Positions 46,348 through 54,054 of a stretch of 64,000 nucleotides of DNA are shown piece after piece. Made by a program: the position numbers and the translations under genes. Source of the stretch: an uncultured Alphaproteobacteria bacterium (GTDB taxonomy: Bacteria; Pseudomonadota; Alphaproteobacteria; Rickettsiales; JALZUV01); contig CAWILT010000002.1 of assembly GCA_963837025.1 (NCBI GenBank), forward strand, positions 230,554 through 294,553, read 5' to 3'. The notes under the pieces were generated by a model. It saw only the letters and a program-made list of their open reading frames with translations. It made no database searches and was not told where the DNA came from. How positions within the stretch are numbered: position 1 is the stretch's first letter; every line of letters starts with the position of its first letter.

Positions 46348-47334
46348 TTAAGCCTGCGATTGTGATTGGTATGGAGCAGCTTGCGGTTCTTTGATTTTTT
46401 CTAGGGCGAAGAAGGATTGATAAAGGGAATTATCAACCACGTTGATATTGAATTGAATCACATCAATAAATTCATGTAGGCCATTATTTAAAATGGTATC
46501 CACATCAGCCTTATCAAAAGTTGCTCTCAATTTTTGCATCTCGCTCGTTACCGGAACATCAACATCAAGCATTTGAGTGATGCGATTTAGCGAGCGGGCA
46601 GCATTTTCAATGCAATGACGAATAGCACGCGGAAAATCTTGATTAAGTACGAGAAATTCAGTTACATCGCGGTAGTTGGCACGATGATATTGTTTACGAT
46701 ACATTTCAAATCCGCTCACCGATTTGAGCATCGCGCCCCATTCAACGGTGTCGTAAGGCGAATCCAGCATCTCGCCTTTTGGTAGCAATAGAAAATATTT
46801 TACATCTAGCATGCGAGCGGTTTTATCGGCACGTTCTAGCAATCGTCCCATGCGCGCAAAATGCCATCCTTCGCCATGCGACATGGTGTTTTCAATAAGG
46901 CCTGAAAATAAATGATTTGCTTGATGGATTGAAGTGAAAAAATTCTGAAGATCATCAATGTTTCGTTTGCGACTTTGCTTTTCAACTAAGTGATAAAGTG
47001 CATTGATTGTTTCCCACATTTCGGATGAAATAATTTCGCGAACGGTGCGCGCGTTTTCACGCGCCATTTGGATACTGGCAAGAATAGAGTTTGGATTCTT
47101 TTCATCAAAGGTAAGGAAATGCAGCACGTTTTTTTCATCGGCAATATCATAGCGCTCGTTGAAATCTTTTTCATCGCCGGATGAACGTACGAGCGGATCC
47201 CATTGCGCCGTTTCGCGCTCCCAACCCATATCTAAAATAAGGCGGGCATTTACATCGATAAAACGCGCCACATTATCGGCACGTTCTAAATAACGGCTCA
47301 TCCAATAAATGGAATTAGCAACGCGACTAAGCAT
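46348..47334 (-). CDS. alpha-E domain protein (DUF403)
   Basis: MLSRVANSIYWMSRYLERADNVARFIDVN. ATG 47334 overlaps the ATP-grasp stop (ATGCTTAG). Confidence 0.85.
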   Translation of the reverse strand: MLSRVANSIYWMSRYLERADNVARFIDVNARLILDMGWERETAQWDPLVRSSGDEKDFNERYDIADEKNVLHFLTFDEKNPNSILASIQMARENARTVREIISSEMWETINALYHLVEKQSRKRNIDDLQNFFTSIHQANHLFSGLIENTMSHGEGWHFARMGRLLERADKTARMLDVKYFLLLPKGEMLDSPYDTVEWGAMLKSVSGFEMYRKQYHRANYRDVTEFLVLNQDFPRAIRHCIENAARSLNRITQMLDVDVPVTSEMQKLRATFDKADVDTILNNGLHEFIDVIQFNINVVDNSLYQSFFALEKIKEPQAAPYQSQSQA

Positions 47335-48793
47335 GATGGGAATCCGTTGCTGTTTTTTTATTGTCCAACACCCATGTATCTTTACTGCCGCCACCTTGCG
47401 AGGAATTAACGACAAGCGAACCTTTGGTGAGTGCCACACGGGTTAACCCGCCGGGTAAAACAAAGATGGATTCGCCATATAAAATATAGGGTCGAAAATC
47501 AACATGGCGGCCTTCAATGGCATCACCAATAATGGTAGGCGTGCGCGATAAATCTAGCGTAGGTTGGGCAATATAATCACGCGGATTTTCTTTAATTTTT
47601 TTGGCAAATTCAGACTGTTCTTTTTTGGTGGATTTAGGGCCAATTAACATGCCATATCCACCCGATAAATTAACGGCTTTTACCACCAATTTATCTAAAT
47701 TTTGTAGCACATAATTTCGGTCTTTTTCATCATCGCAAATATAGGTAGGAACATTTTTTATAATGGGTTCTTCATCTAAATAATATTTGATAATTTGAGG
47801 CACATATGCGTAAACGGCCTTGTCATCGGCAATACCAGTACCGGGTGCATTTGCTAGCGATACGTTGCCTTTGCGATAACATTCCATAATGCCGGGAACA
47901 CCTAATAATGATTTCTCATTAAAGGTTTCAGGATCTAAAAACTCATCATCAATGCGGCGGTAAATAACATCCACTTTTTCAAAGCCGCGCGTGGTGCGTA
48001 ACATGACATGATCATCAATAATCGTAAGATCAGATCCTTGTGCAAGCGGCACACCCATTTGCTGGGCTAGAAAGCTATGCTCGTAATAAGCAGAATTATA
48101 AATGCCGGGGGTAAGCACAATTACATTTGGATTCGTAACCCCATCGGGTGCAGCATGGCAAAGCGCATCATGCAAATGATCGCCATAGTCAGAAACGGGA
48201 CGCACGCGCATGGCTTGAAATGCCTTAGGCATTGAACGCTTTTGAATGGAACGATTTTGTAGCACATAAGAAATACCAGAAGGGCAACGTAAATTATCTT
48301 CCAACACATAAAAATCACCGTTTCCATCACGCACTAAATCAGTGCCGGTGATATGTATCCAAATGCCTTTAGGAGGTGACAAACCTTTACATTGTTCAAG
48401 ATAACATTCTGAAGATAAGACTAAGTCTTTGGGAATAATTCCATCATTTAATATATTCTGATTATTGTAAATGTCGTTGATAAACAGGTTTAGCGCTTTA
48501 ATGCGTTGCTTCATACCACGCTCTAACACTTCCCATTCTTTGGCCGTTACAATTCGCGGCAAAATATCAAATGGGAAAATCTTTTCCGAACCTTTTTTAT
48601 CGCCGTAAACATTAAAGGTGATGCCTTGTTGGTAGAGCGCCCGCTCAGCTACTTTTTGGCGACGCTTTAAATCATGGGTGGGCATGGCATTGATGCGCTT
48701 GACTAAAGGCTTTACCTCAGGGCGAGCGATGCCATCAGACTCAATTAATTCGTCATAAAATCCATCCGTCGTATAGTTCTCAAAATCCATCAT
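47327..48793 (-). CDS. circularly permuted type-2 ATP-grasp protein
   Basis: GITFNVYGD...IFPFDILPRIV...EWEVLERGMKQRIKALNLFINDIY...; 488 aa, typical of the family. Confidence 0.85.
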   Translation of the reverse strand: MMDFENYTTDGFYDELIESDGIARPEVKPLVKRINAMPTHDLKRRQKVAERALYQQGITFNVYGDKKGSEKIFPFDILPRIVTAKEWEVLERGMKQRIKALNLFINDIYNNQNILNDGIIPKDLVLSSECYLEQCKGLSPPKGIWIHITGTDLVRDGNGDFYVLEDNLRCPSGISYVLQNRSIQKRSMPKAFQAMRVRPVSDYGDHLHDALCHAAPDGVTNPNVIVLTPGIYNSAYYEHSFLAQQMGVPLAQGSDLTIIDDHVMLRTTRGFEKVDVIYRRIDDEFLDPETFNEKSLLGVPGIMECYRKGNVSLANAPGTGIADDKAVYAYVPQIIKYYLDEEPIIKNVPTYICDDEKDRNYVLQNLDKLVVKAVNLSGGYGMLIGPKSTKKEQSEFAKKIKENPRDYIAQPTLDLSRTPTIIGDAIEGRHVDFRPYILYGESIFVLPGGLTRVALTKGSLVVNSSQGGGSKDTWVLDNKKTATDSHHA

Positions 48794-53700: not shown

Positions 53701-54054
53701 CATGTGCCTTTACGCGCGACACAAAATGCGACGGTTAAAGTTGCGGGCATTCGATTTAAAGCATGGGAACAATTTTCCAGTCTGCATCCCAAGTTACCCG
53801 TTAACGCACCGCTTGTGTTTGAAGTTATTGATCATATCCAAAATCGCGCACTTGGCGGATGCACCTATCATGTCGTCCACCCTGGTGGCCGCAATTATGA
53901 TCGTTTTCCTTTAAATGAAAATGAAGCTGAAGGCCGAAAACTCTCACGGTTTGAAGCGATGGGCCATACATCAAGCCAGCCTAATATTCCTGAACCTGAG
54001 CAGAATATAGAGTTTCCGCACACGCTAGATTTACGTTTTCCCATACAGATTTAA
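50776..54054 (+). CDS. large transglutaminase-family protein (Bact_transglu_N + TGase core + DUF2126)
   Basis: [17 protein letters not shown]...[23 protein letters not shown], then a roughly 750-aa DUF2126-like extension. Confidence 0.85.
   Translation: [1092 protein letters not shown]

Follow-up and report, generated by a model that had tools for sequence, protein, structure and literature searches.

A 64,000-nucleotide stretch of genome from an uncultured alphaproteobacterium (Rickettsiales, JALZUV01; NCBI GenBank assembly GCA_963837025.1, contig CAWILT010000002.1, positions 230,554 to 294,553 of the forward strand), which as a whole we call the window, carries four linked genes for a circularly permuted ATP-grasp ligase, an alpha-E protein and two multidomain proteins with transglutaminase-like (TGase) modules. 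We found that this feature is real, intact and correctly identified, and that the locus is a typical copy of a common sub-architecture in a known, computationally predicted system that is biochemically an orphan. An earlier interpretation made from the letters alone (the sequence-only reading) had assigned the gene set to the system attributed to Iyer et al. 2009, and the ATP-grasp, alpha-E and TGase genes of that system are indeed all present. The domain fused ahead of the first TGase module belongs to the GATase_4 family of N-terminal nucleophile (Ntn) hydrolases, but has Ser at the position of the nucleophile and, judging from its alignments, is not a canonical glutamine amidotransferase, as the N-terminal Cys of those enzymes is missing. 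The genes and the spacer between the two transcription units are the following.

50776..54054, plus strand: TGase-DUF2126 gene, divergent from the other three (1092 amino acids)
50669..50775, between the two transcription units: divergent spacer (107 bp)
48809..50668, minus strand: GAT-TGase fusion gene, gene 1 of the minus-strand operon (619 amino acids, TTG start)
47327..48793, minus strand: circularly permuted ATP-grasp ligase gene (488 amino acids, CP_ATPgrasp_2)
46348..47334, minus strand: alpha-E gene (328 amino acids, ATG at 47334)

An intact four-gene locus

When the coordinates of the open reading frames (ORFs) were rechecked, the four positions given in the sequence-only reading proved exact, as did the 8-nt overlap ATGCTTAG, which joins the ATP-grasp stop codon to the alpha-E ATG, and the divergent spacer that it had put at about 107 bp. 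The GAT-TGase stop codon is separated from the ATP-grasp ATG by 15 nt, and a terminator scan found no terminator-like site on the minus strand within the operon. All four proteins match their Pfam profiles near full length, with E from 1e-47 to 0, and none of the four ORFs contains a frameshift; together with the essentially gapless alignment of the ATP-grasp protein to the structure 3n6x, this bears out the earlier claim of a complete and intact copy. Two observations support the TTG start of GAT-TGase, namely the AGGA ribosome-binding site that precedes it by 9 nt and the N-terminus MFTIPPLTSD, which its homologues have in common from residue 1. A protein identical to the 619-residue GAT-TGase is on record (P0001 in our protein search).

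Ser occupies the nucleophile position of the Ntn domain

GAT-TGase consists, in order, of a GATase_4-like Ntn domain, a variable Pro/Gln-rich linker, a Bact_transglu_N domain and a transglutaminase-like core. Its N-terminal part contains the following features.

49859..50644, minus strand: GATase_4-like Ntn-hydrolase domain, residues 9-270 (GATase_4, E 4e-47)
50645..50668, minus strand: conserved 8-residue leader MFTIPPLT, residues 1-8 (homologue alignment)
50642..50644, minus strand: Ser9, at the canonical Cys nucleophile position (profile alignment)

GAT-TGase aligns to GATase_4 from residue 10, which falls on profile position 3, and in those fusion relatives that begin Met-Ser, Met-Thr or Met-Pro the initial Met falls on profile position 1 and the Ser, Thr or Pro on position 2; Ser9 thus takes the place of the catalytic Cys in canonical proteins of the 'MCELLG...' type. 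In our alignment of GAT-TGase homologues (alignment A1) Ser9-Asp10 is invariant. Among 120 close homologues, 114 have the Ser-Asp motif and 102 the exact 8-residue leader MFxIPPLT, the remaining six being truncated gene calls or, in one, having Gly; Cys occurs at the Ser9 position in none of the 114 that are informative. We also searched the Ntn domain alone against 1.84 billion representative proteins and obtained 865 relatives, of which 43 had E values of 1e-30 or lower. A Met-Cys start is missing from all of the top 45 of the 865; where the N-terminus is readable, these begin Met-Ser, Met-Thr or Met-Pro, or have Ser or Thr after a leader (for example 'EHQLT-RLLAMSFDG'), and the first canonical YafJ-type protein appears at rank 46.

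The other motifs of the fold are retained. H113 and G115 of the HNG motif are invariant in alignment A1 and N114 is nearly so, while all four residues of T139-D140-S141-E142 are invariant; in PurF-type enzymes the HNG and D-S-E motifs serve the oxyanion hole and the binding of the substrate amino group. Fold, family and the GWG, HNG and TDSE motifs are common to this domain and to YafJ, PA1307 (1te5) and EgtC, from which it differs in having Ser9, preceded by an 8-residue leader, where they have Cys1, and in its fusion to a TGase. PA1307 is the closest solved relative (E 9e-15). The match to EgtC is weak, and against the EgtC NCBIfam equivalog the domain scores 39.4 bits, far below the cut-off of 218.65.

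Were the domain an amidotransferase after all, it would hydrolyse glutamine and channel the ammonia to the ligases encoded nearby, so that a carboxylate would be amidated as by asparagine synthetase B and the resulting carboxamide used by the TGases. Its N-terminal position is typical of class-II amidotransferases, the conserved HNG and TDSE motifs would suit such an enzyme, and two ATP-dependent ligases are encoded alongside. The nucleophile itself argues otherwise, given that Cys is found neither in the 114 informative close homologues nor in the 45 closest family representatives. Position 86, whose Arg we take from motif matching to be the equivalent of the carboxylate-binding Arg, varies among R, L, H and K in alignment A1. 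Moreover, the fusion partner is a TGase module and not a synthetase, and canonical Met-Cys relatives are hardly ever fused, only 1 of 62 reaching at least 560 amino acids. Because the Cys is missing family-wide, we consider a classical amidotransferase role quite unlikely.

The GATase label of the sequence-only reading therefore stands as a match to the GATase_4 family and misleads in what it implies, since across the family Ser, Thr or Pro stands in place of the defining N-terminal Cys; for members of this clade, 'class II glutamine amidotransferase' is probably a mis-annotation. The domain probably represents a distinct Ser/Thr clade of the Ntn fold that is activated by removal of its leader. 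Class-II amidotransferases with propeptides are known, and Ser/Thr Ntn hydrolases have them as a rule.

A GATase_4-like subfamily with Pro at the nucleophile position, starting MPNLLAMSFEG, was also encountered (P0389, P0395, P0398, P0399, P0419 and others), and some of its members are fused to a TGase (P0389, 596 amino acids). These Met-Pro proteins would be either a non-catalytic variant or enzymes of a different chemistry, and they indicate that some lineages may have given up catalysis.

Two transglutaminase modules and two predicted ligases

The catalytic and diagnostic features of the remaining domains are listed below.

48965..49678, minus strand: TGase module of the fusion protein (Bact_transglu_N residues 331-408, Transglut_core residues 473-568)
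49139..49141, 49016..49018 and 48968..48970, minus strand: C510, H551 and D567, the triad of the fusion TGase (motifs VCQDF, HAW and YDP)
51313..51315, 51460..51462 and 51508..51510, plus strand: C180, H229 and D245, the triad of TGase-DUF2126 (motifs SCRDM, HAW and LDP)
51613..54036, plus strand: DUF2126, residues 280-1087 of TGase-DUF2126, preceded by Bact_transglu_N (residues 7-81) and Transglut_core (residues 143-246) (Pfam)
47281..47286, minus strand: E17/R18 in alpha-E ER motif 1, RYLERADNVAR (alignment)
46831..46836, minus strand: E167/R168 in alpha-E ER motif 2, GRLLERADKTAR (alignment)

Both Cys-His-Asp triads, which had been described as kept, are invariant among homologues, that of the fusion protein in alignment A1 and that of TGase-DUF2126 in alignment A2. 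The fusion TGase module matches 3isr (E 2e-18). The two modules are paralogous, with about 25% identity in tblastn cross-matches, and their fusion partners differ, being of hydrolase type in one and of ligase type in the other.

TGase-DUF2126 has the architecture of 'large transglutaminase-like' proteins, namely Bact_transglu_N, Transglut_core and a full-length DUF2126 (E = 0, 1206 bits, profile 4-826 of 826). Its AlphaFold2 model is mediocre, with a predicted local distance difference test (pLDDT) of 69 and a predicted template modelling score (pTM) of 0.61. In a Foldseek search with this model the TGase-like protease 3isr matched the N-terminal module (6e-10), and the rest of the model gave weak matches to glutamine synthetase (probability 0.75, E 0.11), to the gamma-glutamylmethylamide synthetase GmaS (0.38) and to 1tt4 (0.28), an entry titled 'predicted glutathione synthase'. 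These matches are consistent with, and no proof of, the label 'putative amidoligase' that Pfam gives to DUF2126. At the level of sequence, a relaxed Pfam scan found neither GCS2 nor Gln-synt in the DUF2126 halves, the DUF2126 profile matched no PDB sequence, and hhalign of DUF2126 against Escherichia coli GlnA, for which an approximate sequence was used, gave no signal (probability 0.2).

The ATP-grasp protein covers the whole CP_ATPgrasp_2 profile (1-374 of 374, E 1.2e-164), and its residues 13-477 align to 3n6x, a structural-genomics entry in the PDB, with E 3.5e-158. Alpha-E likewise covers its Pfam profile completely (Alpha-E, 1-294 of 294, E 1.8e-95), and the two copies of its 'ER' helix point to an internal duplication. 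The AlphaFold2 model of alpha-E is all-helical and of good confidence (pLDDT 81, pTM 0.81), and no solved relative emerged either from sequence and profile searches or from Foldseek against the PDB, where the best match, with E 0.57 and TM below 0.33, lacks significance. Residues 181-222 (about 46669-46794) contain the invariant positions L183, L184, P185, D195, W199, L203, S205, E210 and Y212, and despite this conservation they are modelled with a pLDDT of only 44-61; the segment may be an interface that becomes ordered only within a complex.

A common locus of two modules

A protein search with GAT-TGase retrieved 1215 clusters (E up to 1e-5), the best 120 of which nearly all have at least 97% query coverage and 60-80% identity, and a scan of one genome per species gave at least 400 stretches matching GATase_4-TGase fusion relatives. 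The extra domain, which the sequence-only reading had called unusual, is thus common. The closest relatives, at 71-78% identity, come from alphaproteobacterial metagenome-assembled genomes, Sneathiella and Kiloniella.

We fetched 80 of these stretches, hereafter loci, and compared them by tblastn with the four window proteins; 58 had enough flanking sequence to be counted. The 80 loci span Alpha- and Gammaproteobacteria (including Legionellales, Coxiellaceae and Francisellaceae), Myxococcota, Nitrospinota, Nitrospirae, Melainabacteria, Chlamydiae, Planctomycetota and Spirochaetales. A TGase-DUF2126 gene is nearby in 49 of the 58, usually divergent and 60-360 bp away, while ATP-grasp and alpha-E occur in 43 and never one without the other; the exact arrangement of the window recurs in 31. 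In 11 of the 58, for example in Sneathiella, Hyphococcus, Hyphomonas and Algimonas, the GAT-TGase/TGase-DUF2126 pair stands alone. Of the two parts of the locus, this pair is the more constant, and ATP-grasp with alpha-E is detachable. When all ORFs of the 80 loci were clustered, no further conserved neighbour was found, the other clusters being lineage-specific synteny or antisense ORFs. Anbu, the proteasome-beta-like Ntn hydrolase often encoded with this system, is absent from the flanks of the cluster and from the ORF clusters of the 80 related loci. From the counts in 58 loci and the clustering in 80 we therefore conclude that the system comprises four genes in two modules that usually travel together. 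An apparent fusion of a DUF2126 gene to a GATase gene (P0473) was rejected as a read-through gene call across a GC-rich spacer.

Promoters and possible nitrogen regulation

The 107-bp spacer must hold the promoters of both transcription units. It contains two -10-like boxes, CTACTAT and ACTATAAT, that are common to close relatives, and we found nothing convincing in it as a sigma-70 consensus promoter, the sigma-70 and terminator scans lying at or below the expectation from shuffled sequence. A sigma-54 site of the -24/-12 type (TGGCAC-N5-TTGCW, up to 2 mismatches) was likewise absent from the spacer, and across the window the number of such patterns was that expected by chance (49 found, 49.4 expected).

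Two observations on regulatory sites concern other positions. The only exact match to the sigma-54 -24/-12 consensus in the window, TGGCACGCTAGTTGCA, lies at 15730-15745 on the plus strand, far from the cluster. In the Asticcacaulis loci (L034-L045) the spacer between TGase-DUF2126 and GAT-TGase contains a conserved inverted repeat, GGGACTAGACAACCGC...AAAAAGTCTAGTTGCA, which looks like a regulator binding site and is absent from the spacer of the window.

For homologous clusters, dependence on nitrogen supply has been demonstrated by others. The Burkholderia cenocepacia H111 genes I35_5080-83, which encode a DUF404/407 ATP-grasp, a DUF403 alpha-E, a TGase and a 'large' TGase protein, are among the most strongly NtrC/sigma-54-dependent genes under nitrogen limitation (PMC5491218). 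In Pseudomonas putida, nitrate raises the expression of PP_2685 (Anbu) by log2 4.4 and that of PP_2688 (ATP-grasp) by log2 4.0 relative to ammonium (PMC8050072), and in marine metagenomes the domains of the system co-vary with urea-metabolism domains (PMC3597751). By extension, nitrogen may also regulate the cluster in the organism of the window.

Proposed function and its alternatives

Two Anbu structure papers credit Iyer et al. 2009 with predicting a peptide-ligase/peptidase system, and the same papers describe an operon of ATP-grasp, alpha-E and transglutaminase, often accompanied by Anbu (PMC6376114, PMC5666114). One of them calls no hypothesis confirmed, and the other defers the physiological substrates to future work (PMC6376114, PMC5666114). 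At the level of biochemistry, orthophosphate release from ATP has been established for the Yersinia ATP-grasp protein (PMC6376114).

We suggest that the four proteins form a cytoplasmic system for making and cutting amide bonds, built from ATP-dependent ligases together with thiol and Ntn hydrolases and serving nitrogen economy, a proposal that we rate slightly above an even chance. We infer the following division of labour. ATP-grasp, with alpha-E as an obligate partner, would convert a carboxylate to an acyl-phosphate and then ligate it to an amine, candidate substrates being an amino acid, a peptide or a gamma-glutamyl-type compound. DUF2126 would be another ATP-dependent carboxylate-amine ligase, its fold probably resembling that of glutamine synthetase, and bonds of the same class would be the target of the two TGase modules, working as thiol amidases, isopeptidases or transamidases. 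The Ser9 Ntn domain, kin of GATase_4, YafJ and EgtC, would be an amidase or transamidase, probably activated by removal of the 8-residue leader, and this Ser-type domain would occupy the place held by the Thr-Ntn protease Anbu in other versions of the system. The whole would contribute to nitrogen economy under nitrogen limitation, through protein and peptide recycling or through the scavenging of gamma-glutamyl amides.

The likeness to the Anbu operons of Pseudomonas and Yersinia (Iyer et al. 2009; Valas & Bourne 2008) is close: both sets have the circularly permuted ATP-grasp and alpha-E, the same type of TGase (Bact_transglu_N plus core) and an Ntn-fold hydrolase, and the P. putida operon is induced by nitrogen limitation (PMC8050072). 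They differ in that the window has no Anbu, a frequent but optional part, and has instead the GATase_4-like domain fused ahead of the TGase; in gene order, the TGase coming first in the window; and in the tight linkage of a divergent TGase-DUF2126 gene. The B. cenocepacia cluster I35_5080-83, NtrC/sigma-54-dependent as described above, shares the ATP-grasp, the alpha-E, the TGase and the large TGase protein, the last of which would, from its annotation, be the DUF2126 protein. Its genes all run in one direction and its TGase carries no GATase_4-like annotation, whereas the window has the fused domain and no sigma-54 promoter in its spacer. A likely further four-gene example is presumably M. 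tuberculosis Rv2566-Rv2569c, and we take Rv2411c and Rv2567 of the same species to be circularly permuted ATP-grasp homologues. In a 2026 preprint Rv2411c and Rv2567 were expressed as candidate ligases, and the test for gamma-aminobutyric acid (GABA)-trehalose synthetase activity was negative.

Several results weigh against the proposed amide-bond system. Since the spacer is without a sigma-54 promoter, the link to nitrogen is extrapolated from beta- and gammaproteobacteria. ATP-grasp and alpha-E are not nearby in 11 of the 58 loci, and the four genes may accordingly form not a single machine but two modules that cooperate. The resemblance of DUF2126 to glutamine synthetase derives from weak Foldseek matches to a mediocre model, with negative comparisons at the sequence level, and the occurrence of Pro at the nucleophile position in some relatives suggests that the Ntn domain may be non-catalytic in part of the family. 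For Anbu itself, no peptidase activity was found, nor was a complex among the operon proteins detected (PMC6376114). Finally, the literature searched to mid-2026 defines no substrate or product for any member of the system, which agrees with the sequence-only reading on this point; searches for 'DUF2126' and '3N6X' returned no relevant functional paper.

Two narrower versions of the amide-bond proposal differ in what would be conjugated, and we hold them to be about equally likely and inseparable by sequence. In the first, which resembles pupylation, the ligases would add an amino-acid or peptide tag to proteins, and the TGase and Ntn enzymes would remove the tag or degrade the target, with the amino acids recycled in starvation; taken on its own, we find this version rather doubtful. 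Its parts would parallel PafA (a glutamine-synthetase-like ligase), Dop (a deamidase) and the proteasome (an Ntn hydrolase), so that the Pup-proteasome system (PafA, Dop, 20S), like the present one, combines an ATP-dependent carboxylate-amine ligase with a deamidase or isopeptidase and an Ntn hydrolase. The Pup-proteasome recycles amino acids under starvation. The comparison is one of functional analogy and not of family membership: no Pup-like tag gene is present here, the folds differ, an ATP-grasp and a TGase thiol enzyme standing against Dop, and protein targets are here hypothetical. Pupylation-like tagging is credited to Iyer et al. in the Anbu papers, which relay the proposal (PMC6376114, PMC5666114), and the induction of homologous clusters by nitrogen limitation would suit it. 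It is disfavoured by the lack of any tag gene or small conserved ORF beside the cluster in the 80 loci, by the failure to find Anbu peptidase activity or complexes among the operon proteins, and by the type of the Ntn domain, which is that of small-molecule amidohydrolases (YafJ/EgtC) and not that of a self-compartmentalising protease.

In the second version the conjugate would be a small molecule, formed by the ligases from a (poly)amine and a gamma-glutamyl or peptide carboxylate and hydrolysed again by the thiol and Ntn amidases, in a cycle like those of the E. coli glutathionylspermidine synthetase/amidase (GspSA) or the Puu pathway; by itself we give it low credence. GspSA, too, joins an ATP-grasp-type ligase and a cysteine amidase whose target is the bond made by the ligase, and the solved homologue 3n6x was deposited under the name 'putative glutathionylspermidine synthase', which is an annotation with no assay behind it. 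The amidase of GspSA has a CHAP fold and that of the window a TGase fold, and the ATP-grasp of the window is circularly permuted and predicted to depend on alpha-E. Further points in favour are the membership of the gamma-glutamyl amidohydrolase EgtC in the GATase_4 family, where the match of our domain is weak, the presence of gamma-glutamylmethylamide synthetase among the Foldseek matches, and the occurrence of polyamine transporters in the Burkholderia NtrC regulon (PMC5491218). On the other side, the amine oxidase gene adjoining the cluster is not kept in related loci, and no transporter or pathway gene is conserved beside the cluster in the 80 loci.

A more far-reaching form of the amide-bond proposal would make the Ntn domain a self-processing Ser/Thr amidohydrolase that cuts its propeptide between Thr8 and Ser9 and functionally replaces Anbu in this branch of the system; with the two TGases and two ligases it would run a nitrogen-starvation-induced cycle of an undescribed amide conjugate, either a protein tag or a gamma-glutamyl-type metabolite. 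We regard the combination of all these elements as improbable.

Genomic surroundings

The cluster is flanked on one side by rfbC and rmlD and on the other by an amine oxidase gene and a DUF3429 gene. Directly downstream of alpha-E, rfbC (dTDP-4-dehydrorhamnose 3,5-epimerase; 45698-46237, minus strand) is split into ORFs of 62 and 107/108 amino acids and is probably a pseudogene, and rmlD, which follows it (44886-45707), is intact. The G+C content falls to 0.39-0.40 at 44001-48000, compared with about 0.45-0.46 in the rest of the cluster and window, and this dip spans rmlD, rfbC, alpha-E and part of the ATP-grasp gene. At 54059-55732 a gene for a short, 327-residue flavin amine-oxidase-like protein, convergent with TGase-DUF2126, is followed by the DUF3429 gene. 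The amine oxidase was rejected as a member of the pathway, being unconserved in related loci, with one weak match (30% identity) in L045.

A degraded integrated element (29282-44731) adjoins the cluster and includes the following features.

29282-29367: tRNA-Tyr
29920-31766: DUF2924 gene and large serine recombinase
34961-36331: HipA-like kinase
38293-39621: ParB-N6/N4 DNA methylase
44429-44731: isolated integrase Arm-DNA-binding fragment

One ORF of 736 residues (41470-43680, plus strand) encodes three parts: the ATPase of terminase gpA, a gpA nuclease that is truncated (profile 1-189 of 294), and a lambda-type portal represented by its C-terminal half (profile 182-354 of 354). It has the look of a decaying prophage in which an in-frame deletion has fused terminase and portal.

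This setting raises the question of whether the four genes serve in anti-phage defence or are cargo of a mobile element, as the tRNA-Tyr, recombinase, HipA and terminase/portal remnants at 29.3-44.7 kb lie next to them. PADLOC models match none of the four proteins, and the genes form a conserved chromosomal unit in many phyla, with lineage-specific housekeeping neighbours. On these two grounds a defence role is unlikely; homologous clusters are, in addition, regulated by nitrogen supply, and we consider the defence or cargo explanation highly improbable overall.

Significance

The copy in the window adds no new principle and is no more testable than its homologues in Pseudomonas, Burkholderia and Mycobacterium. 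What is gained is comparative: the Ntn component of the system varies between Anbu and a Ser/Thr-type GATase_4-like domain, a clade is probably mis-annotated as 'class II glutamine amidotransferase', and the locus can be pictured as modular, with [Ntn-TGase] and [TGase-DUF2126] proteins. If the Ser-type domain does replace Anbu, experiments on the system would start more easily from this fused Ntn domain of monomer size than from the Anbu complex, which was inactive in tests. The ATP-grasp/alpha-E/TGase system is among the more widespread bacterial gene sets without a known substrate, and is found in pathogens and model organisms. Its expression responds to nitrogen supply. Its chemistry, once defined, would add to bacterial nitrogen-stress physiology and might reveal a new peptide-tagging or metabolite-conjugation reaction.

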